Below the pieces are notes generated by a model, which saw only the letters and a list, made by a program, of their open reading frames with translations, made no database searches and was not told the DNA's origin. A stretch of 64,000 nucleotides of DNA, from contig NC_090325.1 in assembly GCF_035084215.1 (NCBI RefSeq), positions 112,902,001 to 112,966,000 of the forward strand, given 5' to 3'. Both the position numbers and the translations under genes were made by a program. The DNA comes from Heptranchias perlo. Lineage: Eukaryota. Position 1 is the first letter of the stretch, and each line of letters starts with the position of its first letter. Positions 16,743 to 58,064 of the stretch are shown here, in pieces.

Positions 16743-18775
16743 GGGCTCGAATTTAGCAGGCCTGCGGGTTCCCAGCGGGTGGTCCTCCGGGAGCGTCGAA
16801 AACGCGGACGGCGAAATTAGTGGGTTGCCCACGCGATCGTAGCAGGCAACCCACTAATAGGAATCAATTACCTGCTCCTCCGGGGTCCACGGCGCTGGCC
16901 TGCGCGTCGGGTGGGCTGCGCATGCGCAGTACGATCTGTCAGCTGGAGGCTCTCTAGTTAAAGGGGCAGTCCTCCACTGACAGATGCTGCAACCAATGGG
17001 ACAAATTGCAGCATGGAGCAGCCCAGTTTAATGATGCCTCACCCCAGGTATCATCAGATGGGGTGAGGAGGAGGGGGAGGACACAGATCTTCCCCCCGGC
17101 GGGCGGGAGGAAGCGGCCTGCCTCTGCCACCAAGAAGGCCTGGCTCGAGGTGGCAGAGGGGGTCACCTGCACCACCAACATATGGCCCACCTGCATACAG
17201 TGCAGGAGGCGCTGCAATGACCTAAGTAGGTCAGCCGCAGTGAGAACACGTAGTCTTTCCCCTGCACTCCGTCTGCCACAACACTGCCCCCACCCCAAAT
17301 TTCCTTCGGCACCGCCAACACTATTCTGTCACATCACCCTTCATACCCACTCACACCCCATCCTCATCTTACCTCCACCTACTCACCTCGCCAGTACTCA
17401 TCCTGCCACTAACACGCGACCCAATCCTCATACAATCTCATGGCTCCATCCCATACTCACCCTCTCGTGCATCTCCCTCATGGCCAGCCTCACTCAACCT
17501 GCCACTACCTGTGCTGCAGCCACAGGGCATGCATCACATATGCGCAGTAGGCAGCGTAAGGCAAACGTCTCGTCAGCATGAAGGGGGTGCACAAGGGTGT
17601 CTGAGGGTTTGTCATGGGTGTTACCCATATTGAATTTCAGAGCAACAAACAGCACACATTATATTGACACCACCACTGCCATGTCTCCGCGAATCCTGTC
17701 CGTTGTGTCCAATAATGCCCGCTCCTGGGTATCACTATGAGGACCCACCACCGATGCCACCCATCGTGTTACTGCAGAGTAGGTGCAGGTGTATTTGCAG
17801 GGCTCGTCCGCGCAGACGACTGAGAGACATCGGCGGTGTAGCCGGCTGCACCCTGGAAGGATGCGGAGGAGAAGGTGTGGAGGGCAGTGGTGACTTTGCC
17901 AGCGACAGGTAAGCAGTTGGTGCTGGGGCCAGCCAGGAGCAGCTCGGCATGAAAGAGGCTGCAGATCTCCACGACTACATGTCGAGCGAATCTGCGCCTC
18001 CCTGTGCACTGCTGCTCGGAGAGGTCCGGGGAGCTGCGCCTCGGTCTGTGGACCCTGTGGCGAGGGTAGTGCCCTCTGCGACGCGTCTCTCTCTGCGGTA
18101 GCCCTCCCTCCTGCTGTGCAGGTGGGCGTGCAACAACACCGTGTTGGTGGGATCCACGTCCCTGCGGCGGACGGCGTGGACTGCGAGGCTGCTGGTGCTG
18201 GTCATGCTCTTCGTCCTCCGAGGGTCTCCACACACCACCCAACTGGCAGGTGTTGGTCTGAGGGGTTGTGCAGGGTAGGTGTGTGGTTCCTCGGACTGGG
18301 GCTGCGGTTTCGTGTCGGTCTGTCCTCTGGCTTGGCGGGGGGTGGTGGAGGGCAGGGGTTGCCCTATGTGACGCGGTGGCCTCCTGCGTGGGTGAGGGCT
18401 CTCCCCCGTGGAGCGCACCTTGGCACCTGCCACAGGCTGCTGGCTGCAACACGCCTGGTTGGAGGGAGACTGTTTCCCCCAGTGTGGGAAACTCACTGCC
18501 TTGAACCTAAAATCCCACACTTCCTCTTTTGACAGCTGATTCAGCTCATTAAATGACCACAACGAGCAAAGTAAGTACTCTCAAGTGGAACCCCGCTGGC
18601 TTTAATTGCCTGCGGGATTCCCACCAGCGGGGCTTGCGCGCGCAGCCCCGCACGTCAGCGCGGTACCCGGAAGTGGCCGGGATTTCGTCGCGATCCGGTC
18701 ACGTGACCGGAGATCGGGATTTTCAGGGCCACCCCGCTGGGAACCCGCCGGAAACACACTCCTAAAATCGAGCCC
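16743..18775 (+). mobile_element. Internally deleted PIF/Harbinger transposon (non-autonomous derivative A)
   Basis: TIRs GGGCTCGAATTTAG / CTAAAATCGAGCCC flanked by a 3-bp TSD (CAT); Myb/SANT exon on +, transposase N-terminal remnant on -. Confidence 0.92.
17006..17581 (+). CDS. Transposon-derived Myb/SANT-like (trihelix) mini-ORF, 191 aa in the ORF track; expression unknown
   Basis: SATKKAWLEVAEGV...WPTCIQCRRRCNDLSRS matches the Myb exon of the full element; the C-terminus PATTCAAATGHASHMRSRQRKANV matches that element's C-terminus; first ATG in frame is near 17013. Confidence 0.5.
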   Translation: MQHGAAQFNDASPQVSSDGVRRRGRTQIFPPAGGRKRPASATKKAWLEVAEGVTCTTNIWPTCIQCRRRCNDLSRSAAVRTRSLSPALRLPQHCPHPKFPSAPPTLFCHITLHTHSHPILILPPPTHLASTHPATNTRPNPHTISWLHPILTLSCISLMASLTQPATTCAAATGHASHMRSRQRKANVSSA

Positions 18776-19059
18776 CATAAGTGGGCTAAAATTTACTACT
18801 AGTGAAGGCCAACAGGGCACATTATCTGCTCACATTAAAAATTAAGGTAAAATCTTCAGGTGCTTTATTGGAAACTTGCCTGGCTTTCCACTGGACTGCA
18901 GTTAAACTACCTCTTTGCCACAGTATGGTCAGTGTGCTGACCTTGCTCCTGAGTTAAATTTCTGGTTTTGTATTGATGCACACTTGGTACTCCTTCACAT
19001 ACTGTAAAACTGATAATATATCTGGACCTTTAATCTGCTGATTGTCACATTAATATATG

Positions 19060-19800
19060 CAGTAGCAGGGTTTTTAACCCCTGGGCGGAAAGCATAGGAG
19101 AGGCACCACCTGGGAGTTGCCATGGGAGGGCCAGTCATTTTTAAACCACCGAGCCTCATTAACATTTCACCAGCCAGTTGCCTGCAGGTATAAAGAGGCA
19201 GATAGCTGGCTGCCACAACGCGAAAATCGTGCAGCCAGCCCTCGGGTAAGATGCAGGGTTTTAGTAAATTTGTACGGTAAGTTTTGTACTTAGCTTTTGG
19301 GGCCTCCGCTTCTTCTTTGGCAGTTTTTATTGGTCAGATCATCCACGGTGGATGCCCTGGTCAGTACGCAGTTAAATTGCCTGAGAACCTATTTCGTCAT
19401 CGAGCCTCATTTGAATGAAAACATTAAGCTGCGGGCGAAAGAAAACGGGCATCCCGATGCAGCTCGCCAGTTGGGATTTGATGAATTCCAGCCAGCTCTG
19501 ACACCTAGCTGGCCCACAGGTTGATTTTGTGGTGTTGAGGAGACGAAGCCAAGGGGAGCAAGCTCGGGCCAGCAACGGCTCACTACTCCTTTAAGGACCG
19601 CTGCAAGCTCCGCCCATTTGTACAGAAAATTTGCGTCGGGGGTCCTACTAGAGTAGGACTCCAATTTGCATAATATTGCAGCTTTCCACCTGTTTCAGGC
19701 TGTCCATACATAGGCCCGCCTGAATACGGCATCAGACGGGCCTTGGGTGTCAATGGAGCGGTCATGATGCCCCCCTCCCCAAGATTTTCAATTCCCCCTC
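19060..19800. mobile_element. GC-rich MITE-like repeat
   Basis: Motifs shared with other MITEs here (ttttaacccc, ttttggggcctcc, aatttgcataat); ends not resolved. Confidence 0.4.
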
Positions 19801-20359
19801 CCTCCCATTTTTATGCTGCAAAATGGATGGCCCTGAGTTGAATTGTTCCCCCATTAAGTTCAGGCTGTGTGGGACACAACTTTTGTGCAATTGGGAGAGG
19901 CCAGAAAATAGGTCCTGTTTAGTACAAATAATATGGGAGGTAATTGTTAGAAAATAGGAACAGGATGACTGCCTCATGGATTAGAGATCACATCTGCACT
20001 AAGACACAGGACAAAAATGCTTACTGAAAGTTTTTGTTTCCTCCCTCAACATTGTGCCACCTGCTCCTGACATTCTCCTTCTGCTCTGTATTGTTGTTTT
20101 GTCCAGGACAGCTGTCAATGTTGCCCTGTAATCAGCCAAAGGAAGTGTGGTTCAAGAGGGCAAATCAAATGATTTCCGTTTCTTTTCCCTTCCCAACTAA
20201 GCAGAACAATTTTGAATGACAAGTAGAACTAGGAGTTCAAAAATCAGAACATGCAACTTGCAAGTTAAGTGTTCAAGATATCGACTGGGAGCTACCCCTA
20301 GAACACCTGCTTATTCCATCTCACTCTACCTCCAGCCTGTCTAAGGCTAAAGGTTCAGC

Positions 20360-21040
20360 CGACAGGATTTTTCACCTGAATTGCACCAGTTTTCCAGGCG
20401 GGTGGGTGGAAAATTGGTGGGAAGCTGTACATCCGGGCTCCTGCCCATTTCTGTGCCTGCACCAATCTTCCATCAGATGCCAGAAGGACCCAACTACGTA
20501 AGAGCAGGTGTGTTCAAATCAGGTGGTAAGGACACAGTGACATCATGTGTTACATTTCCCGTCATTACCACTTTAACAACACTGGCGGTAGTTATGCCAG
20601 CATTTTACTGGCATCTAGTGTTGCTAGGGCTGGCGGAGAGAGATTATAATTAAAATGGAGTGTTTCTAGAGCCAGCAGATGCGATTTTTCAAGTTCAAAT
20701 GGGCCATCCCAGCAAATATAATGAATTTGTGATGGGATCGGAGTACTATATCCCACCATCAGGTTTTGCCAGGAAATGAAGAGACCACACACTTCTGTCT
20801 GTCTGGGTAGTGACCGGCCCTTTTTTGTAGCTATCGATGCCAGAGTTCTGCAGCAGCAGCGATTTTTTTCATCCCCTCCCAGCCTGGTGGTGGACTCCCC
20901 AGTAGGAATCTGCCAAAATAATTTGCATAGGGCTGACCTCAGGAGTTCTCCAGGGTCGGCAGAGGAACAAGTGGTTGGGCACAAATAACGTCCCATCAGC
21001 CCAATGCCCCCAGATCTTGCCCGAAGGAAAATTCCAGCTA
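20360..21040. mobile_element. MITE-like element
   Basis: Ends caggattttt / gaaaattccagc; GC-rich and non-coding. Confidence 0.35.
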
Positions 21041-21459
21041 AGTAAGTCTTCTCCATCCTCATATACTGTTCTAGTTACTATTGCATTATTAGGAATTACT
21101 TTACCACTATTGCCTTACAAAATGCTTCATCAACTATTATTTACAAGTGTGCAGAGGCTGCCAAAGGCAAAGCCTTGCTTTTCTTGGTAAAAACTGTGTT
21201 TATACCCAAGCAATATAGACAGCAAGTTTAGTTCACATCAAGGATGACGAGAGCACTTTAGACTGTAATCGCTCAGGGTTTATATTTCCAGATGACCATC
21301 TCCTTGATTTTATTCATACAAATTTCCCAGCCCAGTTGGTGCTTTTTTTTGCTCTGCAGAAAATGATAACCTGTTTCTGCCAGCTTGATGCCAATCTCCC
21401 AGTTCACAACCAAGTTCAGTATAAGAATAGAACAGGAAAAAGAAAAATGGAAGACAAGA

Positions 21460-21845
21460 GTACTTGTCTGGAAAACTAGCAACTTGCAGTGAGATAAAAA
21501 GGGACTTTGCCCAGATTAAATGGAGGGAAAAAATTGGCAAGTAGAACTGTAGATCAGCAAAGGGAAATACTTAAACAGGAGGTGAAAAGAATACAACTAA
21601 GAGCATTCCAGTAAGCTAGAAAAGGAAGTGCATTGAAGGCTGGGGCTCCAGAGATGAATAAAGAGATTAATTCAAGTCTGAAACAAAAAAAAGGATTTAG
21701 CACTTACAGGGCAAACAGTAAAAAAGAAAGCCAGAACAAAGGAAAGAATATGGGAAAACTATAGAAAGGACAATTAGAAAGACTAGGAGGGAGTGTGAGA
21801 GAAAACTATCAAAAAAAACATGATGAGCAATAAAAAGGCTTTCCC
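21460..21845 (+). mobile_element. Old CR1 ORF2 fragment
   Basis: Purine-rich, resembles the CR1 linker region (gggactttgcccagattaaatgg, gctccagagatgaataaagag). Confidence 0.55.
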
Positions 21846-23559
21846 TTTTTTCTACTACTGTAAAGTCATATTATTTCCCTAGGATGTGGTGACCCACCTA
21901 GTGACTTTAATAGAATAAAGTTAGGCATAAATTCACACATACATTTTATGAAACCATTGTACTATTAAGGGTACATTCACATAGATATTTATTGTACATT
22001 TAGGGTGTGTAGTCACACACATTTTACGAGTATACAACCATACATAGTTTATGGAGTAACTGCACACCCTGACTGCATGGTGAGTGTTGGGGTCACCTAT
22101 TCTTGAGTTACCTCATCTCTTTTCAACCCAGTGATGTACTGCACCATGGACCTTTCATCTAGGCTTCTGAATAATAATTAAAATAAGTTCCTTACTAAAT
22201 ACATGCAGATTTTCAATTTTGTAACATCAAGGCAGCGTTCCTGAATATTATGGAATAGAACTGGAAGAAATAAATGACAGCATTACAGAACATTTCTTAA
22301 GAAAATGACACACTGTACTCATTATAGATTTATTTGTTGCACAATTTTGATTTTGATTTGAAAATGCGACCACGGGCCTCAAGATTCCAGCAGTGGCTCT
22401 ATGGTTACAATATGTTATAATATACACAGGAGGATTGCACACCAGCACAATTTTTCAGTAAAACACTTCCTTCCTGTCAGCTAACACCATTATAATATTC
22501 TCAACAAAACTGAATGGGCAGAATGGTGACTGTAAGGGGAAATTTACAGAGATGGAAGATATTAACTCCAATGGCAAATCTTAAAGAGTGAAGGTCCCTT
22601 GCACAGGTCATCAAGAAACAAAAATGGCTGTGGGTGTAATCAGATTCTCAGGATTCGAGGTAATGCTTGAAAATTTAGCTTCATGGCCCCCCTCAAGTAA
22701 GTTTCATACATTGTGCTCGTAACACAATCCCAGCCATTTCACAAAAATGTGAAAATTGGAGGAAAGCACACAACTATAATTTCTATAAATAATAATGCGA
22801 TTGGAGCAATCATTTGTTAAAGTGTATTGTACAAGTGGATTTTGTTTTAATTTTTGATGACCAAAATAAAACTTAAAAAATTAAATTCTAGTCTTGTCAT
22901 TTCTTTGAGTTTATTTTGTCAATTTATGTAACCAAACGTGTGTTAAACCCTTATCTGTATATGTATTTGATTTCAGAGCCTGAGTAGCAGGTCTCCTGAT
23001 TGGATCTCAGGTCCCATAAACCTGTGTTGGAGATTGATAGTGTGATATGATAACAGGGACTGAATGTTCTGGCATACTTTTTTGACCCCCCTCTGAGACT
23101 TGGGTCTTCCATTTAGCCCTGACTGATGGAATAAAGTCTTTTCTTTCTGATGGCTCCAAGACTCAAACATGAAATGGGTTTGTGCCAATCTCAAACCAGG
23201 ACCTGGGAGATGTAACTCCACAACACAAAATTCCCTGTTATTTGGCAGTAGTTGGTAGTCTCAAACTCAGGTATCATTCTTGCTATGTTCGGGTTAAGGG
23301 ATATTTTGGAGTCAAATTATCTTACCTCTAACGATACAGGATTTAACCTTGATATTGATATCAGCTGGACAGATGGTGTGGTTAGAGTTACAGAATTCTC
23401 CACACCCCAAAAAATGGAACGTTAATAAATAATATTAGAATCAATAGTATGAGAAAAAGCCATTAGTCAAATCAACCTTGTTCCAATTTGTCCTTTAGAC
23501 AACCCTGCTCACAAATTACAATATAAATTGGATGTATTGCTACCTCAACTTCTTTGTAC

Positions 23560-23810
23560 TGGAAGCAATGTCTGTTACTCCTCAAAGAATTGTATGAGTT
23601 CTGTCAAGCACGGTCATCCCTTTTGAAATCCATGCTGGCTACTTCTAACTATTTTATCTTTATCTGGACATGTGGTAATTTCATCCTGAATTAAAGATTC
23701 CAAAATTTTCCCTACCACAAATGTTAAGCAAAACTGGCCTGTAATTACCTGGATTAGCTCTGTCTCCCTTTTTAAAAATGGGTACTACATTGGCCACTCT
23801 CCAATCCATG
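23560..23810 (-). mobile_element. CR1 ORF2 fragment
   Basis: DWRVANVVPIFKKGDRANPGNYRPV motif in ORF 23681-23920. Confidence 0.85.
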
Positions 23811-24076
23811 AACAAAACTAAATTGTAATTCTTCAGGCCTTTCTGATGAGACACTTCTGTATTAGTGGTCCTAAATCTGAGGAAATTCAGTATCCATGGG
23901 CACATTGCACCCAAGACCAAAGTGCTTTCTGTGCTCTTACCTGTATGGATAGAGTGTCATAAAAATATATTCACTGACAGAAAACAGTAGTACAGGATTG
24001 CTTTCTTTCTTATTGTCTGTTAAGTATGTACATCTAGTGAGCAACAACTAAATTAAGCTTTGTCTTGTTGTTCTAG

Positions 24077-24876: not shown

Positions 24877-26280
24877 GGGGGGAGTTTTAACCCCCCTGCC
24901 ACAATGGGTGGGAGAGAGTTGGGGGGCAGGGGGGGGGGTTCAAAATTAGAAATCGCCTAATGCCACCCAAACCCGCCGCGTTCACTCTAGAGAGGTGGGA
25001 CACTTCATTATAATATTTAAATCAGGCTCCCATAGTGCAGTTGGGAGCCTGATTTAAATTTAACGGTTGCCGGCCGGGTTTCCCAGGGCTCAGGAAACCC
25101 GGCAGCGAAATGGAGACGGGACCAGTCGGATCAGACAGCTAAGTGCTTTTTATAGCACTGCTTGTGAGCCAGGAGGAGCAGGAGTGTTCCACTCAGCCAC
25201 TCAAGCAAATCTTCTGCCACGATCAGCCGACTCCCTCCTCCAAAATCACGATCCCAAGCCTTACACGCCTCGATCTTTGCTGACCCCCCCATACGCCCCG
25301 CGATCTTTGCTGACCCCCCCATACGCCCCGCGATCTTTGCTGACCCCCCATTACGCCCCACGATCTTTGCCGACCCCCCCATACGCCCCTTCATCTTTGC
25401 CGACCCCCCCATTACGCCCCATCATCTTTGCCGACCCCCCCATTACGCCCCATGATCTTTGCTGACCCCCCATTACGCCCCATGATCTTTGCCGACCCCC
25501 CCATTACGCCCCATGATCTTTGCCGACCCCCCCATTACGCCCCATGATCTTTGCCGACCCCCCCATTACGCCCCATCATCTTTGCCGACCCCCCCATTAC
25601 GCCCCATGATCTTTGCTGACCCCCCATTACGCCCCATGATCTTTGCCGACCCCCCCATTACGCCCCATCATCTTTGCCGACCCCCCCATTACGCCCCATC
25701 ATCTTTGCCGACCCCCCCATTACGCCCCATCATCTTTGCCGACCCCCCCATACGCCCCGCGATCTTTGCCGACCCCCCATTACGCCCCGTGATCTTTGCC
25801 GAGCCCCCTTTATGTCCTGTGATCATTGCCGACCCCCCCATTACGCCCCATCATCTTTGCCGACCCCCCCATACGCCCCGCGATCTTTACCAACCCCCCT
25901 TTGTGCCCCGCAATCTTTGCCGACCCCCCTTTTTCCCCAATGATCTTTGCCGACCCCCCCATACGCCCCGCGATCTTTGCCGACCCCCCTTTATGCCCCG
26001 CGATCTTTGCCGACCTCCGTTTATGCCCCGCGATCTTTGCTGACCCCCCCCATGTCCAGCGACCTTTGCCGATTGCTCCTGCAGCCTTCTACCTCAGGCT
26101 TTCCTGCCTTTCAGCCGGCCAGCCTGTCAATCTGCTGCCGGGCAGAAAACAGAATAAAAAATGATAATGTGCACCTGCCGTTAAATTCGGCAGGTCCTCC
26201 GCTTTCCCGGGTTTTCCAGGTTTCCGCCCCGCAAACACACTCCCCTGCTTCCTTCCTGCCTCCCTGTAAATATCGGGACC
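24877..26280. mobile_element. Harbinger-like MITE carrying an internal minisatellite
   Basis: Ends ggggggagttttaac / gtaaatatcgggacc; the right end resembles the Harbinger terminus ctaatatcggggcc at 32224; flanks act/att. Confidence 0.6.
25265..26070. repeat. ~29-31-bp C-rich minisatellite (gatctttgccgacccccccattacgccccat)
   Basis: About 26 imperfect tandem units with variable C-run length. Confidence 0.95.
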
Positions 26281-27184
26281 ATTCTGTTTTCTACAGTCTG
26301 ATCCATACCAGAATAATCATACAATTGTCATATATTTTCTGAAACAAGCATGCAAATATAAGTTACCCAATGAATTTTTGAAAATCAGACCCAGTTACTA
26401 ATATTGGCTTGAAGATTTTGACTGAATTTCTTTTTCATGAAGTAACTCACTGAAAATTGTTTCTCATTAGGTTGCTTTCCAACTTTGTAAATCACTTTAA
26501 CCCCCAACACTCAGGAGTCAAGATTTCTAATGTGCCAACTCTTTCTAATGTGGCAGTTTTGGTAAAATGCTATTTCGGAGGTCACTTGTTTTTTTTAAGT
26601 GAAATATTTCTTCCTTATTAAACAAAATAATCAGGGCTTAGACGATGATTTTTTGCAAATTGGAAGACTGACACAATGGGGCTGATTTTCGGATGGCGGA
26701 GCAGGTGCGTTGGAGGCGGGGGGCTCCTAAAATCATGCAAATCCGGAGTGGGTTCGGAGCCCAGCTCCAACATTCAGATGCACGTGCACCTCCCGAATGC
26801 AGGAGTCCCATTGGCAATTAAAGCCGGCGGGATTATAATTTACAAACTTTTTCAGATAGTTAACGTACATGAGATACCTGATTGAGTGGACATTTTGGCA
26901 GGGATGCAATTTTGAAGGATCCTCAGCGTGTTTCCCGTGCTGTGGGAAACACTCCCTGTTGTAACAAACCTGTTTCAGCCAGGAGCCAGTGGGAGATGCA
27001 AAGGATTATTTGACAGGTGGGGAGAAAACCTCATTTATTGCAGCAGGGCACTCTGTCACTTCAGACAACGTTTTGGCTGCAAGACCTTTGTTTTTTCACT
27101 AAAAATTCTTACTTTCCACCCAAAACTCTGCTGTGCAAACATATTTACCTACTTTGCGGACCCCCTCAAACTCACACCGTCAGG

Positions 27185-28370
27185 ATGGGGGGGCGCCATG
27201 GCTGCATTCATCACTTCATCCAAGGACGAGCAATATCACCAGCCTCGCTAGGCACACTGTCCACCTCCGCCACGTGGAGCTCCACAACACAGTGCAGCGC
27301 CACAGGCACCTGCACAAGAGCACGGAGGGCAACAACAGAGAGAGCGATGTCGTAGGAGGCACTACCCTCACAACAGGGTCTACAGACCGAGGCTCAGCTT
27401 CCTGGACCTATCTGAGGAGCAGTGCATACGGAGGCTCAGAGTCAGTCGCCAGGTAGTCGCAGACATCTGCTGCTTCCTTCATGCCGAGCTGCTCCTGGCT
27501 GGGCCGAGAAGCATCTTCTTACCTGTCGCTGTCAAAGTCACCACTGCCCTCAACTTCTTCACCTCCGGATCATTCCAGGGTGCCACCAGGGACATCGGCG
27601 GGGCCTCTCTGCACACAAATGCATGAGGCAGGTCACCAACGGCTTGTTTCACATGGTCTTGCACTACGTCAACTTCCCCATGCACGATCTCAGTCAGACG
27701 GAGAGGGCAGTGAGATTCCACGCTGTGGCTGGCTTCCCACGGGTGCAGGGTGTAATCGGTTGCACCCATATAGCAATACGAGCACCTCCAGCTAGGACTG
27801 TTCATCAACAGGAAGGGCTATCACTCCATCAATACTCAGCTCATCTGTGACCACCGCAAGAGATTCCTTCACGTGTGCGCCAGATACCCTGGCAGCTGCC
27901 ATGATTCCTTCATCCTCCGGGAATCCAACATCCCGCCCCTCTTCCACACGCTGAACACCCGTAAGGGCTGGCTCCGCAGGGACAAGGGATACCCCCTGCA
28001 CATGTGGCTCATGACACCTCTGAGGAACCCCAGCACCGAGCAACAGCGTCGATATAACAACAGCCACATCGCTACCAGGTTTACTATTGAGCATGCTATA
28101 GGGCTGCTCAAGATGTGCTTCAGGTGCCTTGATTGTTCTGGGGGAGCGCTTCAATATGCACCAGACAGAGTAGGACGCATTATAGTCGTGTGTTGTGCCC
28201 TGCACAACATGGCACAACAGAGGGGGTGCCGCTTCAGGGGGCCCCATCCACATCTGCCACCCACATTGAGGAGGAGAAGGATGAGGAGGGGTTGGCGGAG
28301 GAGGAGGAAGAGTAACCCATGGGCAGAACAACAGCTCACCTGGCTGCTCGTGAGGCCAGGTAGTCACTGA
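27185..28370 (+). pseudogene. Harbinger (HARBI1-like, DDE_Tnp_4-type) transposase, frameshifted
   Basis: GFPRVQGVIGCTHIAIRAP, ARYPGSCHDSFIL, DKGYPL, YNNSHIATRFTIEHAIGLLK, IIVVCCALHN; the first catalytic Asp appears as Gly; stops and frameshifts present. Confidence 0.93.
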
Positions 28371-28711
28371 TATGTGAACGGTTCTCCGCACATCAGACAG
28401 TGTAAAGAGTCCAGTCCTCACCGCCTGGACAAAGCAGGGCCCACACCAGCGCCCCCCCACTCCCGCCTCCCTGCACGAAACAGTCCTGCAACTACACATC
28501 CACCCACTGTAGAGTGACCCACTGGGTGGCATCAAGTGTGGGTGTTCATGGTGAACCTCATGAAAGGGACTTATTACACAAGCCAGTCAAGAATGGCCAA
28601 GAGGTGGCAGTAGTGGTGACAATAATAATATTTAATGTGCGTTTAACAAAAATCAAATATAAATAAAAAACATGACAAACCATCAAACACCCTTGTGCAT
28701 CCCCTTTGTGC

Positions 28712-31700
28712 TTACAAAACCTTCGCCGTTTGCTTCCGACTACTTCTGCGTGGTGCATCCCCTGTGGCTGCAGCAGAGGTAGTGGCAGGATGCTCTTGTT
28801 CATGCCCTGACTGATTAGATGCTTTGGGCCTACGCCCTCTGGGTTTTGGTGCCCGTGAGGGCCCCTCCAAAGACTGCTCCACCTGCACCTGTGCAGGGGC
28901 AGACTCGACCACCCGGAGAGGAGGCAGCATTGCGGGTACTGGTTGAGAGGGGGGCAACGGGTGAAACGTGGGAGCGCTTTGAGTGGCGTCCCCACTTCTA
29001 TGTCCCCTTTCGCCATCTCCCTCCACTGGGCCAGGCCCACACCACTCCTACCACCCTGCTGGACGACAGTTTGGAGGACATGTGTGAAGCCTTGTAAGGC
29101 CAGTGCCAGAGTATCTGCCTGCCTGTTAAGGCGGCAGAATGTTATTCACCCTGAGTCCGAACGGCCATTGCCAGGACCTGAATGGACTCATTTGTGAGCC
29201 GTGCTTGAAGCTCCATGGAGGCTAGCCTTCCCTCCATCGCAGACATTCCCGCACTTACCTGCGACGCCATCTCAGAGATGCCCTCACGTCCCTGTGACAG
29301 TATCTCAGAGATGCCATCCCTTACCTGTGCCACCATTCCACTAATGCAGGATTTGGACTCCTCCATCTTCTGCGGGATTGTGGAGAGTGCGCATGGCACC
29401 TGTTCCAGCACCTTGCAGATGTGCTCATAGAGTCATAGAGTCATAGAGTTATACAGCACGGATAGAGGCCCTTCGGCCCATCGTGTCCGCGCCGGCCATC
29501 AGCCCTGTCTACTCTAATCCCATATTCCAGCATTTGGTCCGTAGCCTTGTATGCTATGGCATTTCAAGTGCTCATCCAAATGCTTCTTGAATGTTGTGAG
29601 GGTTCCTGCCTCCACAACCCTTTCAGGCAGTGAGTTCCAGACTCCAACCACCCTCTGGGTGAAAAAGTTCTTTCTCAAATCCCCTCTAAACCTCCCGCTT
29701 TTTACCTTGAATCTATGTCCCCTTGTTATAGAACCCTCAACGAAGGGAAAAAGCTCCTTAGTATCCATCCTATCTGTGCCCCTCATAATTTTGTACACCT
29801 CAATCATGTCCCCCCTCAGCCTCCTCTGCTCCAAGGAAAACAAACCCAATCTTCCCAGTCTCTCTTCATAGCTGAAGCGCTCCAGCCCTGGTAACATCCT
29901 GGTGAATCTCCTCTGCACCCTCTCCAAAGCGATCACATCCTTCCTGTAGTGTGGCGACCAGAACTGCACACAGTACTCCAGCTGTGGCCTAACCAGTGTT
30001 TTATACAGCTCCATCATAACCTCCTTGCTCTTATATTCTATGCCTCGGCTAATAAAGGCAAGTATCCCATATGCCTTCTTTACCACCTTATCTACCTGTT
30101 CCGCCGCCTTCAGGGATCTGTGAACTTGCACACCAAGATCCCTCTGACCCTCTGTCTTGCCTAGGGTCCTCCCATTCATTGTGTATTCCCTTGCCTTGTT
30201 AGTCCCTCCAAAGTGCATCACCTCGCACTTCTCCGGGTTAAATTCCATTTGCCACTGTTCCGCCCATCTGACCAACCCATCTATATCGTCCTGCAGACTG
30301 AGGCTATCCTCCTCGCTATTTACCACCCTACCAATTTTTGTATCATCAGCGAACTTACTGATCATACCTTTTACATTCATATCCAAGTCATTAATGTAGA
30401 CCACAAACAGCAAGGGACCCAGCACCGATCCCTGTGGTACCCCACTGGCCACAGGCTTCCAGTCACAAAAACAACCTTCGACCATCACCCTCTGCCTTCT
30501 GCCACTAAGCCAGTTTTGTATCCAAAGTGCCAAGGCACCGTGGATTCCATGGGCTCGTACCTTCTTGACCAGTCTCCTGTGCGGGACTTTATCGAAGGCC
30601 TTACTGAAATCCATGTATATCACATCCACTGCGTTACCCTCATCCACATGCCTAGTCACCCCCTCAAAAAATTCAATCAAATTAGTCAGACATGATCTTC
30701 CCTTGACAAAGCCATGTTGACTATTCCTGACTAATCCTTGCTTCTCCAAGTGGAGACTAATTTTGTCCTTTCAGAATTTTTTCCCTCAATCATTCTCCTT
30801 TTCATGGATAGCCACCAGGATTCAGCAATTGTGTCCAGCTGAGCAGAGCCTGGAGAAGAGTGCTCCCACCGACACGAATTCTCCACAGCTGCCCATGCCA
30901 CCAGTGTCTGCTTGTGCTCACATGGGTGTGGTGACTCACCATGTGCAACCCAACTAACTGCGGACGGGGACCCACCGGGGTGTATATACCTGCGCTGGTG
31001 GATGGTTTGCTCAGATGTGACGGTGCCTCCTCAGAGGCCGGCAGGTCCTCTAAGGAATCGCCCTCCATCATCACAGCGGTCGCTGAAGGCCCTTTAAGAG
31101 AACAGAAGGCAATATTAAGCATGACCACAGATGTTGAGGTGCTGAAGATAGCAAGGCATGTTAACATCAATTCATACTATGTGTGCTGAATGGTAAAGTT
31201 CTGTCACCAGATGTTTGCTGGGTGCCAGTCTCGGCATCCCCGATGGACAGGCGCTCGATGGTGCGGCTCAGCTCTAGCACCTCCTGCTCCGCATCCATGA
31301 GGACGACCTGACGTTGCGGCCCCCCAGCCGGTCCTCACCCTCTCCTGTGCATTCTGGGCTCTCTTCTCCTATAAAGGGAGAAAGTAGAGACGCGTGAGTG
31401 AGTGATGGTGATGTGGCCAACCACTGAATGCATTGGTTTGGGTGAGGCTGACCATGAAAGAGGTGCATCAGAGGGTGAGTATGAGGCAGAGCCATGACAT
31501 TGTATGAGGATTGGGTTGAGTGGTAGTGGTGGGATGAGTACTGGGGAGGTGAGGAAGTGGTGAGGAAGTCCAGGTATGTTGAGGATGAGCTTTGAGTGAG
31601 TGTGAGGAGTGATGTGATAGAAAGTGTTGGCAGTGCAGAATGAGTTGTGGGGTGGGGGTGATGATGTGGAAGACAGAGTGTGGGAGAATGAGTAAGTGTA

Positions 31701-31946
31701 CTCACTTTTGGCTGACCTAGTTAGGACATTGAAGCGCTTCCTGCACTGTATCCAGGTGAGGGAGATGTTGCTGCTGTTGGTGACCTCCTCTGCCACCTCG
31801 AGCCAGGCCTTCTTGGTGGCAGAGACAGGCCACGTCCTCCCGTCCGCTGGGTAGAAAATATCCCTCCTCCTCCTCACCCCATCCAGTAGCACCTGGAGTG
31901 AGGCATTGCTAAATCTAGGAGCAGCCTTTTCCCTGGGCTGCTGCAT
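28712..31946 (-). pseudogene. Harbinger Myb/SANT-like DNA-binding gene, about 3 exons (31946-31706, 31368-~31207, 31091-28712); last exon split by a CR1
   Basis: MQQPREKAAPRFSNASLQVLLDGVRRRRDIF...KKAWLEVAEEV...WIQCRKRFNVLTRSAK; gtgagt donor and ttatag/ttaaag acceptors; exon 2 starts EKRAQNAQERVRT. Confidence 0.85.
29428..30784 (-). mobile_element. Young 5'-truncated CR1 LINE nested in the Harbinger; uninterrupted 411-aa RT/C-terminal ORF (29514-30749)
   Basis: QHGF, YMDFSKAFDKVPH, GVPQGSVLGP, KFADDTK; (ctctatga)n tail at 29428; no stops in the ORF. Confidence 0.97.
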
Positions 31947-31991
31947 TGTTCTATTTGGTTCTTTGCTCCAGAAACAGCCATTGGAGGACTG

Positions 31992-32004
31992 CCCCTTTAA
32001 ATAG
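31992..32004 (-). promoter_or_regulatory. TATA-like element upstream of the Harbinger Myb gene
   Basis: ctatttaaagggg about 50 nt upstream of the ATG; conserved at 56269 and as ctagttaaagggg near 16954. Confidence 0.45.
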
Positions 32005-32532
32005 GGCAGCTGACAGCCTGTGATGCGGGTGCGCAGTCCGCCCGCCGCGCAGGTTTCTGACGGGAAACCCGGAAGCCACGCTAAGTGGCTCCAATTTACC
32101 CAGGATCGCATGTGGAACGGACAGATTTTATTGGGCGGGTTACCCACATGCCCAATCGCCCCCACCTCCCCCGCCCCCCCCCCCACTGCCGCTGCCATCC
32201 CGCCTTCCCGCTAATATCGGGGCCGATATGATGCAGCTAGGCAGTGAAATCTCGTTTATCCAAACCAAATTCTTTTGGAAATCCTGATTATCCCAACTAG
32301 CCCAAAGTCTTGTTCTAGTTAGTCTCCTCTCACTTTGCTCTATGGAGCCATAGTTCCTTTGTTCATTAATCCTAGCAAAAAAAGTAAGCAAGAGTAAAAG
32401 GTGGTGGAATATCAAGAGAAAGCACCAACCTATGACTCGTTTGTATTTGGGATTGCTCTAAACATTCCCACCCAAAATATATGGAGTAAAGACAGCTAGC
32501 GGAATTGAAAAAAGAGACCAATTTAACTAATT

Positions 32533-49997: not shown

Positions 49998-50084
49998 TAT
50001 TGATTTAAGAATAGGCCTGGCACAGCCCCTAAGGAAATAAAAAAGCTCTGTTTCATATTTCAAAAGTTCCATAAATATAGGGGC

Positions 50085-50970
50085 TACAGCTAAAGGGTAT
50101 CAAATTCCAATATTCAAAAAAGGAGCAAGACATGAATCGGGGGGTCAGTTAGTCCAAAATTGGTGGTGAAGATCGAACGAACAAATAAACTTGCATTTAT
50201 ACAGCGCATTTCACAAACTCCAGATGTCCCAAATGCTTTACAGCCAGAGATGCTATAAGTTATCATCTAAAGAACATAATGATCATACGTTTTTGAAGCA
50301 GTAGCAGTGGAAAAGGTAAGTTTATAGTGCATATAGCACTCTTGGATTTTTGAAAGCCATTTAAAAAAAAATTTGCTTAACTGTACGACATTAATTTTAA
50401 TTGAGTTGGCTAAATTGAAACTTTACCTGACAATATGAGACAGAAGGTAATGAACAGTGTTCTGTCTCACTAGTGGAGTTTTACTGGGTCTATTTTAATT
50501 GCCCTGCTGTATTTGTAAAACATATCAAAGACAGGACTTCCAATAACATGAAATTTGCTGATGATGCCAATCTGTGTGGCAAGGTAACTAAAGTAGGGGA
50601 GATAGACAGCAGTCAGAGGGATCTGGATGAAGTAAATGGATGAGTTAAGGGTTGGCTGAAGGATTTAATATGGATACATTTAAAGCAATATCCAGTGTGC
50701 ATACTTCCAGTAAAGGTGGATAAGATGAAGGATTTGTGCATGATTATTGACATTTGATTGAAAATATCCAGTCAGTGTGAGCCCATTATCAACAAGGATG
50801 CACCTTAATAACACTTAATGATGTCAAAACATTATCTAACCCAGCTTAACTCATTGATGTGACTAATTTTAAAATAGTGTATGCAGTTTGGGGCATCCTA
50901 CCTTCAAAAGGACATTGCTGCTTTGGCAAGAACTCAGAGAAGAGTAATAAGGATTATTCTGGAATTTAAA
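50085..50970 (+). mobile_element. Very old CR1-like fragments with an inserted SINE tail (50185-50250)
   Basis: aaatttgctgatgatgccaa (KFADDA) and tgtatgcagtttgggg; aacttgcatttatacagcgc SINE tail on the minus strand. Confidence 0.55.
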
Positions 50971-52679
50971 ACTGTCTTTATATAGGTCAAAATTTCCCAA
51001 GAGCCCACGCCACCAGCAGTGCTTCACACACAACAGGTGATTTATCAGATCACTGGTGCACTGCATGAAATCAATGGACAAAAAAAACCATGGGCCGTGT
51101 ATCAGTGGGGGGAGTCTCAGAAAATTTCACCCATAGAGACAGAGAACCAAAGTGGTTTTCATTGGTGAATTAAAGGTTGAAGGGGTGATATAGGCCTTTA
51201 AATTACTGAAAGACACATTTAAATACATTAGAATGATGCTTCAAATAAGTGGTTTATTAAATAATATGGTTGAAAATAATTTACTTTTAATATATTTGGC
51301 TCTGCAGTATTCAGTAGTAACATTGGACAGCAGTAATTAGGTCCTGCACTAGTTTTTTTCTCTCTTTTGAGAGCAAATCCCACTTTTCCAGAGAAAAGGT
51401 GAAAAATCATTTTAGAGCACATTGCTGTTTGCTGATGTCGTGTTAAGTAGCCTGGATTTGAGATAATATGGTTTTAAGAAAACAAGAGACTGGAAATGAC
51501 TGTTTTGTTATATTTTGTCCACTATTTTAACTTGGGTGTTAACCTGTTATTTTAAATGAGTTAATGCCTCTAAGATTAGTGGACAGAAGAATGTCTAAGA
51601 ATGTGTTAAGTCTTTGCTTGCTAACACCGCAAACAGTAATTCTAAGTTAATGTGCGTTATGTTCATAGTTTTTGACACCAATGGTGCCGTCTATGCAGAA
51701 ACATAATCGTAATCTGCTTTCCTATCGTACATCAACTTCAACCACAGGGTGAATTCAAGCATATTTTCAACAATTGAAACTTACTGTAATAAATTGAGCC
51801 TTGGTATGAACAGCATGTGTCAGAGGAAGGACCATGGATGTGTGCAGCCAGCAGGCAGATACATTTGCAAGCCAAATAAAATAATACATCTTTTACTGAC
51901 TTCACAGAGAAGAACACCAATGACCCTCGGCTGCCCTCTTCCATGATCCTGGCACCGCAATTTCAGAACCTTTATATTTTTTTTATTTTAGGATTACAAG
52001 TTTTAAATAACCCAGGACTTTTATTCATCCACTGCAGAGAAGAAATGTCATTTGCTGAAAATGGATTGTTTTAGAGAGCTATACTTATATCTAAGTATAG
52101 CTCTCTGCTGCTTTCATCCTGAAAGCACAAGAGAGAAAAGATGAAACCAGGATTTGCTTCTCTGTCCAAGAAAAATAGTACAAAATGACTTATTAAAGAT
52201 AGTTGTAGGAGATTATAATTTCACACATTATATATTTAGGTGGATTAGATGGATTATATTGTATGTCATACTTGAGGAGAAAAATAGCTGGACTCATTTC
52301 TTTCTTATGTGTCGATGTATGGACAGATCCTAAGTACTTGCAGATGGATATGTTCAGATCATTTGCATCACCTCTGACAAGCAAATGGTTGAATTTGACA
52401 TCCATAACTCGTGTGTTCAGCAGAAGAAATGTACTGCTCAAAGCAAAAGGAAAACTTTCCCTTTGATGCACTTCCATTTTTAGAAAGTATCACCTAGCAG
52501 CCCAAAGCTCTTTTATTTCTCTGATTTTCTCCCCTTTGCCTTTCCCTCATGCTAGAGTACTGTTCTATTGATAGTGGGAATACTCCAGTTCTTCACCCAA
52601 ATGTCCATTCTTCATTTGTGAGCCTAAAATGTGTTGACATCACAACAAAGTCCTAATCCTTTGATTGGTGGGATGTGAT

Positions 52680-53660
52680 AAATGATATTCCCCAGGGTTC
52701 TGTACTGGGGCCTCAGCTTTTCACCATATATATTTGTGACTTGGATAAAGGAATAGAGAGTTGTATATACAAGTTTGCAGATGACACTAAGTTAGGAGGC
52801 ACAGTAAGTTGTGTAGATGGGAGCAGGAAGTGACAAAGGGACATAGACAGACTAAGTGAATGGGCAAAACTATGGCAGATGGAGTTCATTATGGGGAAGT
52901 GTGAGGTCATCCACTTTCGCTCCAAGACAAATCAGAATTTTTTCTTAATGATGAGAGACTAGGAACTGTGGAGGAAGGAGATTTAGGTGTCCATATCCAC
53001 AAATCACTAAAAGATAGTGCACAGGTACAAAAAGCAATCAAAAATGCTAATGGCCTTTATCTCAAGGGGGCTGAAATACAAAAGTGAAGAAGTGATACTT
53101 CAATTATACATCTGGAGTACTGCGTTCAGTTTTGGGCATCAAACCATAGGAAAGATATATTGGCTTTGGAGGGGGTGCAGCACAGATTCACCAAAATGAT
53201 ACCGGGGCTTAAAGGATTAAATTATGAGGACAGGTTGCATAAACTTGACTTGTATTCCCTTGACTTTAAAAAATTGATGGGTGATCTTATCGATAAGGGA
53301 TATTATTAAAATAATAAAGGGATTCAAGACGGTAGATACAGAGAAACTATTTCCTCTGGTGGGAGAATCCAGAACAAGAGAACATAATCTTAAAGTTAGA
53401 GCTAGGCCACTTAGGAGTGATATCAGGAAGCACTTTTTCACTTAAAGGGTAGCGGAAATCTGGAACTCTCCCCCAAAAGGCTGTGGATCTGGGTCAATTG
53501 AAATATTCAAGACTGAGATTGATAGATTTTTGTTGGGTAAGGGTATTAAGGAATATGGAGCAAAGCGGGGACATGCAATTGAAGTACAGATCAGTCATGA
53601 TCTAATTAAATGGCAGAACAGAGTCAAGGGACTGAATGGTCTACTCCTGTTCCTTTGTTT
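52680..53660 (+). mobile_element. CR1 3' fragment (RT and 3' UTR), decayed
   Basis: ccccagggttctgtactggggcc (PQGSVLGP), aagtttgcagatgacactaag (KFADDTK) and a CR1-type 3' UTR. Confidence 0.92.
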
Positions 53661-53726
53661 CCATGGGCCTAAAACTATTTGGTCAGTCTAGCTCAGGGAG
53701 ATATTAACTTGGCTGGCCAGGACATA

Positions 53727-54481
53727 GGCCCAGAATTTGTTCTAAAAATAACGCGATCCTAACAGCGCTTACTGTTATTTTAGTGCAAATGGTAGAGGAA
53801 CTCCTGGCGACCGCACATGCGTTGTTAAACGCGGAAATCGGGAAGTTTCTCTACCAGATGCCCTGCTCGTCCAGAAGCTTTGCGGGAAGGAGATCTCGCC
53901 GGTTGACTCACCGGTCAAATGGCTGCAACTGTTCGAATTTGCTGCACTGCCCAGCTGAAAACAAATTATTTTTGCCAGAAAAAGGTACGTCCAATTTTTT
54001 TAGTCTAACCAAAATTTTAACAGCGTGGTAAGTCTTAATGACTGCCAAACAATGTCTCTGGCACTGAATTTCCTTCACATTTTAATTGTTGTTGGACATT
54101 TTAAAAAAAATTAAAATGTTTATTTTTTTTACTTTTTCTTTCTGTGTCATTTACCTCTGTCTTTTAATTCAGTATTTCTTGCCCTCTACTTTATTTCGCT
54201 CTTGTGACGATTTTACATTGAATTTATTATTCTAACTGACACTTTCTGGTTCTGTGTCTGCGCTGCTCATTAAGGATTCTTCAATCTGTTTGGTTAAGGG
54301 GATACACAGTTCCTTGCCCTGTTCGCACAGCTCACAGATGCTCAGGAGAGGCCGCTGCACTTTTCTCAGGTCCCCATTACAGCAAGTTGCTGCCCAAAAG
54401 CCCCTGGATAGTTTGTGGGTAAGTTCAAATCTAACGAGCGGTGGGCGCCATTTGTTCGCTGCTCAGCGCAAAATCCGGGCC
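53727..54481. mobile_element. Harbinger-like MITE
   Basis: TIRs ggcccagaattt / aaaatccgggcc. Confidence 0.65.
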
Positions 54482-55329
54482 AATGCCTTTGTTTATTTTA
54501 CTTTATCCTGAATTTTCTTCAAGTGAAGAAAGATTCAATTATATAATTCCTGACCTATATTGTTCCTGCATTCTGCTAGCACAAAACCAGTTTGACTATA
54601 CTGTTGGTCATACATCTATATCTTCAGGTTCAATGTCATTTTGGTCTATGTTACTTTATCACTCATGAAATTCACAAACTTCGCTCTCTAATGATTCGAA
54701 AACATTGAAACCAAACAAATGGCAGCAAGCATTAGTAAGCAACTCAAATTGGCCTCAGTGATAAATCTAACCTCTACTCTGGCATGCACTATTAAAAAAA
54801 CGAAAAACAAAAGACCGCCAAAGAGTGCAGCATTTTGCATTCCATCTCACTTTTTGCAGTATGTTATCCTCTATGTAATTCTGCTTTACATATTCAACAC
54901 TGGAAATCTATAGATGAGAATTTGTTCAGATATTATTTGATTGAAAACATCTAACAATCATTCAGGATGGGTAGAGAATAGTATTGGCTTTCCAATCTAC
55001 AGGTACTTGTCAATTTCAGGCCCATATCACATCCGTATATATTTGTATAGAAAGCAAGTGGGATCAGCAGCAATTTAAAGTACTCCTATTAAATGTAAAT
55101 ATCTTTTCAAAGAAAAACAAACAGGATGAAATAATTAGAGAAAGTCAAACACAGGAAGTCTGCTTTTATAGTACTTTATTCAGGAGTTCAATGAAGAGCA
55201 ACAAGAGGCCCCGAAGAGAGATGATACAACTTTCGAAGCTAATAAATGTGCTTTGATCAGCTTTTCTCCTTCTTAGTAAAATGCAGATGGAAGATAGCAA
55301 CTACCAGAAACTCAGCAAAGGAAGCCTAA

Positions 55330-55575
55330 GGTATCCTTGTGGAGCCAGGAGGAGCATTCCTGCTACCCCTGGCCCACAAGGAACCTTTAAAAAGTTTTTA
55401 AAAACACTTACCTGGGCCTTCCATGGCCAGGATGCTGCCTGCCACAGCTTTCGATGTCATCGGGATTTGACTTTGCCACTTAAATTAGGCCCCTGCTCCC
55501 CTCGGGCGGGTGGCCTTCCGGAACGCTGGCCGCACCACTACTGCCGGCCGGCTGGGGGTGTTAAAGTATTCCCCA
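55330..55575. mobile_element. MITE fragment
   Basis: Shared hairpin cttgtggagccaggaggagca...cctggcccacaag; end gggtgttaaagtattcccc. Confidence 0.5.
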
Positions 55576-56070
55576 TGGTGTTATTATTTTTAAAAGTGAT
55601 GCATGTATCTGAGAGCAGCCTGAAATGAATTTTAATCTGTATAGATTGCTTCGGGTTTTTCATTCTGTCATCAAAGGGAGGTGATGGTAATGCTTGTACT
55701 CCCAGCCTACCACCGTTTGGACTTACACAACCCTTATTTAGTTATTAGGAGCAACTTCTGAGCACCACACAGGTGTTCTGGGTGTGATGGAATTACTGTC
55801 TACTTCCATTCCATTCTTGCACTTATGATGAGCACAAACAACTGAAGAACAAAACAGTTATGCTCCTATGGAAAATACATGTCAGAATGCTGCCAAACAA
55901 GGGTGCCATGCCTTACAGGTGATGGCACATCCCCTTTAAAATCCAAACCAATTCGTGTCAATCACTCTCCCAAATAGAGCCTCCTAATAATTATTGAATA
56001 GAAATAATGAGGAGGTAAATGAGTTGATATATAATGTAAGATTGAAGATAGTGACATACACTGAGACATA

Positions 56071-58064
56071 GGGCCCAATATTAGGAGGGAGGCGGGTTGG
56101 CAGCGGGGGGTCGACTGAGTGCGTGGGTAACGCGCCCAGTGAATTCGGGGTGCTCCGCATGCGATCGCAGCCTTGAAGGCACTGACTGTGGCTTCCAGGT
56201 TTCACGCTGGAAAGCTGTGCAGCGGGCGGACTGCGCACCCGCATCATAGGCTGTCAGCTGGAGGAGCCCTATTTAAAGGGGCAGTCCTCCACTGACTGAT
56301 GCTGCAGAAAATAGGCAAAATTACAGGAGGAAGGCTGCTCCCAGGTTTAATGATGCCTCACACCAGGTCCTACTGGATGGGGTGAGGAGGAGGGTGAGGA
56401 CAGGGATCTTCTCCCCGGCAGACGGGAGGAAGCGGCCTGCCTCTGCCACCACGAAGGCCTGGCTCGAGGTGGCAAAGGAGGTCACCTGCATCACCAACAT
56501 ATCACGCACCTGCATACAGTGCAGGAGGCGCTTCAGTGACCTCAGTAGGTCATCCGAAGTGAGTACACTTACTCATTCCCCTACACTCCGTCTGCCACAT
56601 CACCGCCCCCACCCCACATCTCCTTCTGCACTGCCAACACTACTCCATCACATCACCCCTCACACCCACTCAAAGCTCATCCTCATCTTACCTGCACTTA
56701 CTCACCTCGCCAGTACTCATCCCGCCACTACCACTCAACCCAATCCTCATACAATCTCATGGCTCTATCTCATACTCACCCTCTGATGCATCTCTTTCAC
56801 AGTCAGCCTCACTCAACCTGCCACTACCTGTGCTGCAGCCACAGGGCATGCATCACATATGTGCAGTAGGAAGCGTAAGGCAAACGTGTTGTGAGCATGA
56901 AGGGAATGCACAAGGGTGTTTGAGGGTTTGTCATGGTTTTTACTTATATTTGATTTCACATTACATATTATATTGTCACCACTACTGCCACGTCTTTGTG
57001 AATCTTGTCTGGTTTGTGCAATAATGCCCTTTCCTGAGGATCACAATGAAGACCCACAACTGATGCCACCCATTGTGTCACTGGAGAGTGGGTGTAGGTG
57101 TATTTGCAGGGCTCTTTTGTGCAGACGACTGAGAGACGCTGGCGATGTCCCCGGTGGCACCCTGGAAGGATGCAGAGGAGAAGTTGTTGAGGGCAGTGGT
57201 GACTTTGACAGCGACAGGTAAGAAGATGATGCTTGGGCCAGCCGGGAGCAGCTCGGCATGAAGGAGGCTGCAGATGTCCACGACTACATGTCGAGTGACT
57301 CTGAGCCTCCGTGTGCACTGCTGCTCAGAGAGGTCCAGGAAGCTGAGCCTCGGTCTGTAGACCCTGTGGTGAGGGTAGTGCCCTCTGCGATGCATCTCTC
57401 TCTGCCGTTGCCCTCCCTCCTGCTGTGCAGGTGGATGTGTCACAGCACTGTGTTGTGGAGCTCCCCGTGTCAGAGGTGGACGGTGTGGCCGGCGAGGCTG
57501 GTGATGATGTTCGCCCTCCGAGGAGGTCATGACAGTAGCTACGGTGGCCCCCATCCATAAGATGTACATTTGAGAGGGTCCGCAAGGTAGGTACATGTGT
57601 CTGCACACCGGGGTAAGTGTGCAAGTTGGTGAATTTGATTGTTAGGAGGAGGGTGGTGGAGGCCAAACTTTGTCCAAAGTGACAGAGTGGCCACCTGCAA
57701 TGAGTGAGGGTCTCCCTCCCCCCACCCCCCGCCACCTGTCAAATGGACCTTTGCAGCTGCCACAGGCTGACAGCTGCAACACGTCCATTTCAACTGGGAG
57801 AGTTTCCCCCTCCTAAAATATCCTACAAATCAGGTCTGCCAACGACCTGAACTATCAAATTAATTGGTTAAAGTGGGATCCCGCCGGCTTTAATTGCTGG
57901 CGGGAGTCCCACATGCGGGGGCTGCGCGCGCATCTAAGCGCGTCACTGGGGAACCCGGAAGTGGGCGGGTTGGAGCCGGGCTCCGGACCCGCCCCGGGAA
58001 CCCCCGATTTTCGGAGGCCCCCCTGCCACGAACCCAACCGCTCGGACGTCCAAAAATCGAGTGC
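56071..58064 (+). mobile_element. Internally deleted PIF/Harbinger transposon (non-autonomous derivative B)
   Basis: Ends gggcccaatatt / aaaatcgagtgc with ATA on both flanks; Myb exon 1 (ORF 56382-56786) on +, transposase N-terminus on -; collinear with 16743-18775. Confidence 0.92.

Follow-up and report, generated by a model that had tools for sequence, protein, structure and literature searches.

The usual view of non-autonomous DNA transposons is that they lead nowhere: they amplify in one burst and stop once their master diverges. The 64,000-nucleotide stretch of Heptranchias perlo DNA analysed here (contig NC_090325.1, positions 112,902,001 to 112,966,000; hereafter the window) holds a full-length two-gene Harbinger transposon, element F, together with two shorter elements, A and B, and raises the question of how two copies can share both of their deletions and yet be so unlike. 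The initial annotation had described A and B as two copies of one derivative that lack the same two segments of F. Self-alignment and a three-way alignment, by which the coordinates of all three elements were checked, bear this out in that A and B show the same alignment blocks against F and the same breakpoints (F 31438 to 28792/28789, and 28471 to 27609), with the junction 1 sequence cagcctcactcaacctgccactacc present in both, and the target-site duplications (TSDs) proposed for them are also found, as CAT/CAT and ATA/ATA. They are of one lineage, are only 77-79% identical and belong to different subfamilies.

An old core with replaced ends

Copy A is a mosaic. In 100-bp windows its consensus resembles B over positions ~130-1400 (mostly 88-96% identity, with one window at 78%) and a young autonomous subfamily, Q, at both ends. 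Its first 70 bp match the Q copy L145, a young element with an open transposase frame, at 70/70 positions, and its right end (18260-18775) matches the same copy at 498/516, compared with 325/470 to B and 291/480 to F, whereas over the Myb exon and intron A is closer to B (428/495) than to L145 (291/475). Diagnostic sites are of derivative type almost throughout upstream of 18100-18118 and of Q type almost throughout downstream. Similarly, the right arm of B is closer to copies L149 (559/622) and L150 (551/629) than to F (434/594). In the core tree (61 rows, L207 left out) the derivatives form one ladder-like clade beside copies of P, the old autonomous subfamily to which F belongs, and in the arm tree, built from as many rows with the same omission, the young derivatives are nested within the autonomous lineage. 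For 18 selected derivative copies and 10 autonomous rows, derivative monophyly in the core has an SH-like approximate likelihood-ratio (SH-aLRT) support of 100, and derivative monophyly in the right arm is rejected for the same rows (log-likelihood, lnL, -390; approximately unbiased test, p-AU 8.6e-10). The junction-bearing core is of single origin, and within one derivative lineage A stands at the young end and B at the old. The earlier proposal that the two upstream regions are just parental sequence retained is not supported; the ends have been replaced by sequence of later autonomous subfamilies.

The autonomous side was sampled through a DDE_Tnp_4 search in which 150 of 34,316 candidates were scored, many of them with open frames near 500 aa; 40 of these loci were fetched, and a pair of terminal inverted repeats (TIRs) was located in 36. 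Full-length autonomous copies form a ladder from P-like elements to two young groups, Q1 and Q2, which lie ~1% from their own consensus and 25% from P, and the middle stages come from a further 40 undeleted copies, for which the first 20 matches were taken for each of two older variants of the pattern (L242 was passed over, being already in the set). Between P and Q2 the ratio of nonsynonymous to synonymous substitution rates (dN/dS) is 0.28 for Myb exon 1, 0.23 for exon 2, 0.51 for exon 3 and 0.18 for the transposase core, with all intervals below 1. Under purifying selection the autonomous lineage thus went on changing, and the changes extend to the Myb exon for DNA binding and to the subterminal sequences.

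We compared eleven derivative stages, taken from the core tree, with eleven autonomous stages. P is closest to the derivative Myb exon and intron at all eleven, with identity falling from 94% to 84%, and the 240 bp beside junction 2 are also closest to P at every stage. The inner right arm is R1/R2-like up to D6, and between D6 and D7a it acquires 122 substitutions in 370 bp at once, 100 of which are common to autonomous stage R7; because the autonomous series changes gradually, this transfer is polarised from autonomous element to derivative. In the terminal 270 bp on the right, the best match advances along the autonomous series at almost every stage (D1-R1 92%, D2-R2 89%, D3-R3 92%, D4-R4 90%, D7a-R8 93%, D9-Q2 99% and D10-Q1 100%), the best-match percentages over the eleven stages in order being 92, 89, 92, 90, 89, 85, 93, 92, 94, 99 and 100. 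On the left, the outer 70 bp are identical to R3 at D3 (100%), and at D8-D10 their match is Q (89-97%). These comparisons show one replacement of a ~650-bp arm between D6 and D7, stepwise updates of the terminal ~270 bp on the right and ~60-70 bp on the left and, taken together, a serial replacement of the ends by partner-type sequence; an earlier arm replacement probably took place before D1. Dating or classifying such a family from a single consensus mixes segments of very different age.

CpG-rich, promoter-like sequence is seen at window 18632-18730 and at the right ends of Q and D7-D10. The palindrome CCGGTCACGTGACCGG appears in young stages, most stages retain CCGGAAGT, and upstream of the Myb exon there is TGCGCATGCGCA; these motifs may resemble E-box, ETS and NRF1 sites. 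In each of the two lineages the GC content goes up, from 0.57 to 0.61.

Additional support for exchange comes from chimeric copies. L242 (G000:C1:3175019-3178385, with a clean TTT TSD) and L282 lie at different loci and are 94% identical; both join, at a 9-nt microhomology, a D4/D5-type left half carrying both junctions to a right half of autonomous stage R5 that carries the whole transposase gene. This chimera junction has 119 exact matches genome-wide (genome-wide counts here and below are exact-pattern matches over the 3.25-Gb assembly). Copies of this type make up a third family with a dead Myb gene and a regained transposase, which has no fully open frame in either copy. In L235 an A-type left tip goes with a B-type arm and a TSD is lacking, as ectopic exchange between two copies would predict; L152 is a nested-insertion arrangement and L178 a recombinant between two autonomous elements. 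Recombination as the cause of the mosaic ends is well supported.

Source, deletions and spread of the derivative

Element F had been presented as a full two-gene element. It is full-length yet dead, with frameshifts and an insertion: its transposase gene carries indels, its Myb exons contain several relative to the family consensus, and the 1.36-kb segment of a long interspersed nuclear element (LINE) in its last Myb exon is missing from other full-length P copies. F is a member of the source subfamily for the derivative core, not an intact element. As a candidate for the mobilising partner it was rejected, being dead and having an arm that matches that of A at only the 291/480 positions given above. 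The LINE fragment is 98-99% identical to insertions elsewhere (L107, L104), one of them inside another Harbinger copy, and given such identity at different loci the LINE family is young.

The P consensus (4,206 bp), built from 13 of 20 fetched relatives and F minus its LINE, has an open transposase and an open three-exon Myb gene. Relative to it, deletion 1 lost ~1.3 kb once the LINE is discounted, at a CAA microhomology, and deletion 2 lost ~860 bp at the 7-nt microhomology TGTGCAG. The initial annotation had named a CTGCAC hexamer here, and a remnant does stand at the junctions (gtgcag at 57119 in B, gcgcag at 17810 in A), but in the parental consensus the repeat is the longer one. Likewise, the breakpoints given for the loss of the catalytic core are correct, but the deletion takes more than the core, running from transposase ~codon 142 to ~100 bp past the stop. 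Five copies (L096, L097, L110, L116 and L120) have independent internal deletions of the Myb gene, with other breakpoints and the transposase region kept, and in several autonomous copies (L094, L098, L253, L256) a 33-bp minisatellite has expanded within the last Myb exon.

That the derivative is an amplified, dispersed non-autonomous lineage, as had been suggested from the window, agrees with the genome-wide search. A 25-nt pattern across junction 1 has 6,768 + 6,799 = 13,567 exact matches, with 0 for the reversed-pattern control, while a comparable pattern finds 3,474 elements undeleted at junction 2, and late-stage junction 2 has 2,846 matches, each of these three counts being a lower bound. 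Of the first 60 junction-1 matches on contig 1, 57 also carry junction 2, both TIRs are present in 50 and a matching TSD in 38, a count that is perhaps slightly high because TIR candidates were picked with preference for a TSD match. In the other three (L214, L215, L217) junction 1 is combined with a second deletion of another kind, whose end is at a different TGTGCAG, and the two deletions are therefore separable; these copies form a sister derivative of ~1.75 kb in which the second deletion is longer and the sequence close to its junction, like part of the arm, resembles P. Among the top BLAST matches, 3-bp TSDs match in 28/30 A-like and 20/27 B-like copies (48/57 overall, 3/60 loci being left out for want of a left TIR). 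A-like copies differ from their own consensus by 1.4% (30 closest) and B-like copies by 3.7-4.3%. Contigs of other organisms span junction 1 (X9, X11) and junction 2 (X9, X10, X11 and, marginally, X12), so that the derivative is not limited to this species. Tandem or nested derivative copies, and a derivative inside an autonomous copy, also occur (L008, L045, L141/L152).

At ~2,050 bp, and with stages up to ~20% apart, the derivative falls outside the MITEs of Tourist type (miniature inverted-repeat transposable elements), which are homogeneous and whose size limit is a few hundred bp. It has the features of a non-autonomous TIR element, namely dispersed copies, TIRs, distinct TSDs and no catalytic domain. 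Its autonomous parent has those of the PHIS (Harbinger-like) superfamily: a DDE transposase open reading frame (ORF) and a separate Myb/SANT ORF, both open in the P and Q2 consensuses, and short TIRs of the GG(G/C) type (GGGCYCGA..) with a 3-bp TSD. In the accessible text of Han et al. (PMC4482050) the PIF/Harbinger group has the TSD TWA; NuwaI has the TSD CWG, TIRs starting GGG and two ORFs; and NuwaII, placed in the Nuwa transposase clade, has the target C|TNA|G, defined by empty sites. The 86 derivative TSDs do not follow the TWA pattern of that text (first base A in 46, T in 24 and C in 14; middle base A/T in 79; last base T in 47). The GGG start of the TIRs and the two ORFs are present, with first base C in the minority among these TSDs and in 11/31 autonomous ones. 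Flanking C (66/86) and G (50/86 derivative copies, read from occupied sites) give the present element a resemblance to the Nuwa groups of that text. A long palindromic target preference, ~CAGACAC-NWN-GTGTCTG, is common to the 86 derivative and 31 autonomous copies.

Features of the window are collected in Table 1. Three tandem repeats lie near the Harbinger ends: a 48-bp repeat of 107 copies (5.1 kb, window 58478-63584) that starts ~400 bp past copy B and, separated from a Harbinger end by a few hundred bases in either case, a 30-bp minisatellite of 25.6 copies (25272-26050) and a 28-bp minisatellite of 7.3 copies with 99% matches (16148-16351).

Table 1. Harbinger elements of the window and their parts (window coordinates)
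Feature	Position	Strand	Remarks
Derivative copy A, young stage D9	16743..18775	+	2.05-kb double-deletion element; TSD CAT/CAT; TIR 13/14
A left TIR and subterminal tip	16743..16812	+	common to young autonomous subfamily Q; 70/70 to L145, 47/69 to B
14-bp perfect inverted repeat, 15-bp loop	16816..16858	.	derivative-specific; 10-bp insertion from stage D4 on
Myb/SANT exon 1 remnant in A, non-coding	17013..17239	+	subfamily frameshift near codon 11; copy-own 18-bp deletion there
Junction 1 in A	17495..17499	+	Myb intron 1 joined to last ~25 Myb codons; parental-consensus microhomology CAA
Junction 2 in A	17809..17815	+	mutated remnant of TGTGCAG microhomology
Switch from old-derivative to young-autonomous sequence in A	18100..18118	.	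within retained transposase N-terminus; diagnostic-site painting
A right arm (transposase 5' part, upstream region, TIR)	18118..18775	-	from Q lineage
Element F, full-length two-gene, dead, old P subfamily	26678..32224	-	TSD AAT/GAT; 6.4% from P consensus
Transposase gene of F (DDE_Tnp_4)	27198..28370	+	PF13359 E=1e-31; four indels relative to consensus
LINE reverse-transcriptase fragment in last Myb exon of F	29426..30782	-	RVT_1 E=3e-27
Myb/SANT exon 1 of F	31707..31946	-	PF13873 E=1.3e-6
Derivative copy B, oldest stage D1	56071..58064	+	TSD ATA/ATA; TIR 8/14
Junction 1 in B	56814..56818	+	
Junction 2 in B	57118..57124	+	TGTGCAG
B right arm	57420..58064	-	matches early autonomous stage R1, not core-source subfamily P

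Explanations for the mosaic history

We consider it likely that an old, P-derived, non-coding core had its ends recombined in from successive partners and that the updated copies were preferentially moved. Microhomology-flanked deletions took out the greater part of the Myb gene and, from ~codon 142 onward, the transposase; exchange may then have occurred in the repair of double-strand breaks, either through template switching while the gap left by excision was filled or through nested insertion and subsequent annealing of homologous arms, with the retained transposase N-terminus acting as a homology handle rather than as a gene. Updated ends would suit the current Myb/transposase pair better, and such recombinants would found each new burst, so that end updating might be needed for mobility. 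The ORF1/Myb protein binds the element ends in Harbinger3_DR (PMC2836001), and terminal and sub-TIR base changes alter the mobility of mPing (PMC9921582), and because of this, matching ends may be better mobilised. A stronger version, in which the Myb domain and subterminal sites of the autonomous element shift and the parasite captures the new ends by repair recombination in a lock-and-key chase, is a tentative proposal that we lean slightly against. If true, some ten matched fossil stages and young copies with open frames would let this co-evolution be replayed in cells.

Several observations weigh against the account we favour. The autonomous stages were grouped by eye and the identities used include the arm; D6, D7a and D8 are represented by one copy each and D5 by two. 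The left tips of D4-D7b have best matches of only 82-88% among the sampled stages, yet those stages amplified; D5 and D6 have a best autonomous match of only 85-89%; and the old inner arm, of R1 type, persisted in D2-D6 while the partner passed through several stages. No polarity can be given to the short updates at the termini, and the derivative dN/dS intervals are wide (0.5-7). A direct parent with the derivative-type flank undeleted gave 0 exact matches, and therefore the pre-D1 capture could have occurred in an autonomous recombinant, such as L178; the 1 match to a pattern for a parent with B-type sequence past junction 2 is a P-type element into which a derivative is nested.

The strongest competitor, although we think it unlikely, is neutral concerted evolution, that is, two-way gene conversion among numerous copies with no gain in mobility from matching a partner. 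More than 13,000 derivative copies and at least 3,474 undeleted ones would be available as templates, the stages with poorly matched left tips amplified all the same, distant partners cross-mobilise in this superfamily (PMC4423477), and the bias towards the ends could be mechanistic rather than selective. However, comparable homology is available in the Myb exon and intron (~500 bp) and in the 240 bp next to junction 2, and neither was replaced in eleven stages, whereas the ends were updated time and again.

Far less probable is a present or past role of the derivative as a helper that encodes Myb or as a KP-like repressor, with exon 1 reading in frame through the intron and junction 1 and on into the native, basic C-terminus. 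The D1 and D2 consensuses do have an open 193-aa frame of this make-up (Myb domain, intron, ...RKRKANVS), the stop in P's intron being lost, the Myb exon has a dN/dS of 0.43 between P and D1 (confidence interval 0.19-1.42), and MADF-only elements exist in C. inopinata (PMC13668399). A 1-bp deletion, however, leaves only 23 aa of the Myb frame in the consensus of each stage from D3 on, and amplification continued, as the 2,846 late-stage matches attest; neither A nor B encodes the frame, both having extra deletions at the start of Myb and B having lost the start codon. Moreover, from D1 to D9 dN/dS is 1.08 for Myb exon 1 (bootstrap interval 0.5-3.7) and 1.39 for the transposase stretch (0.5-7.1). 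In the derivative, then, what is left of the Myb exon and of the transposase N-terminus evolves neutrally, as a passenger. An open, conserved DNA-binding ORF, as expected of a Myb/MADF-only helper or KP-like repressor, is absent from the stages beyond D1-D2, where alone the frame is open. With a 23-aa frame and a dN/dS of ~1, a protein function of the retained fragments is rejected and the helper explanation refuted for D3-D10, and the view of the initial annotation that the DNA-binding exon and transposase N-terminus were kept as functional parts is not supported.

A single deletion derivative of F's family, in which A and B differ only in age, would account for the shared junctions and for the P-like B and core, but it is highly improbable and indeed refuted, given that A is younger yet farther from F and has ends 97-100% identical to a different autonomous subfamily. 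Independent recurrence of both deletions in each autonomous subfamily, with A a fresh Q derivative, could draw on the microhomologies at both deletions and on P copies with their own Myb deletions (L096, L097, L110), but has next to no probability left and is refuted by the monophyletic core, by a Myb exon and intron in A that go with B rather than L145, and by the other breakpoints that those P copies use.

Comparison with known systems

Coupling of partners through exchange of terminal sequence has a counterpart among retrotransposons: Du et al. (2010), going by the title, reportedly describe autonomous and non-autonomous soybean elements partnered through swapping of long terminal repeats (LTRs), and the present derivative is similar in this respect. 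LTR retrotransposons recombine between co-packaged RNAs during reverse transcription. The Harbinger derivative, in contrast, is a cut-and-paste element without a reverse-transcription step and depends on recombination during DNA repair. In grasses, non-autonomous pararetroviruses keep up their partnership by region-specific recombination that homogenises non-coding regulatory sequence (PMC5491270), but according to that text they are reverse-transcribing viruses, whereas the element here is a DNA transposon.

The derivative behaves as a passenger of the Harbinger3N or mPing type. Within the superfamily, zebrafish Harbinger3_DR and Harbinger3N_DR (PMC2836001) are similar in having a two-gene DDE and Myb-like element, a non-autonomous partner acting in trans and a 3-bp TSD, but Harbinger3N_DR as described there differs from the present derivative with its 2.05 kb, >13,000 copies, ~11 stages and recombinant ends. 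Like Harbinger-1M_cIno of C. inopinata (PMC13668399), the derivative keeps a Myb/MADF part and lacks the DDE domain; unlike that element, which has a recognisable MADF coding region, its Myb exon is neutral and frameshifted, and the accessible text of that paper is silent on recombination, chimeras or mosaics. For elephant shark, the available portion of PMC9179366 reports no Harbinger and does not mention non-autonomous elements.

A non-autonomous element that shares its ends with a master is also known from mPing/Ping/Pong, the Anopheles P-MITEs and Daphnia mPok, in so far as the accessible accounts go. For the P-MITEs an origin through gap repair with ectopic templates has been proposed, and one P-MITE has the TIRs of two masters (PMC1562414). 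In the accessible text on the P-MITEs and on mPok (PMC3849761), each MITE family is tied to its own master, and there is no description of one core handed on from master to master by repeated replacement of its ends, nor of serial end capture in the corresponding parts of PMC4168063 and PMC4067079. The literature searched, with few subscription papers within reach, yielded neither a case of a cut-and-paste transposon capturing ends serially nor a description of the present derivative family. Partner tracking by recombination is already known for LTR retrotransposons and pararetroviruses, and the deletion derivative itself is ordinary though very abundant; what appears to be new is its mosaic history, in which one derivative core persisted while its partner lineage diverged by ~25%, with the recombinational replacement of its ends on record, and which supplies a naturally occurring, matched series of Myb proteins and ends with which the recognition of Harbinger termini can be mapped.

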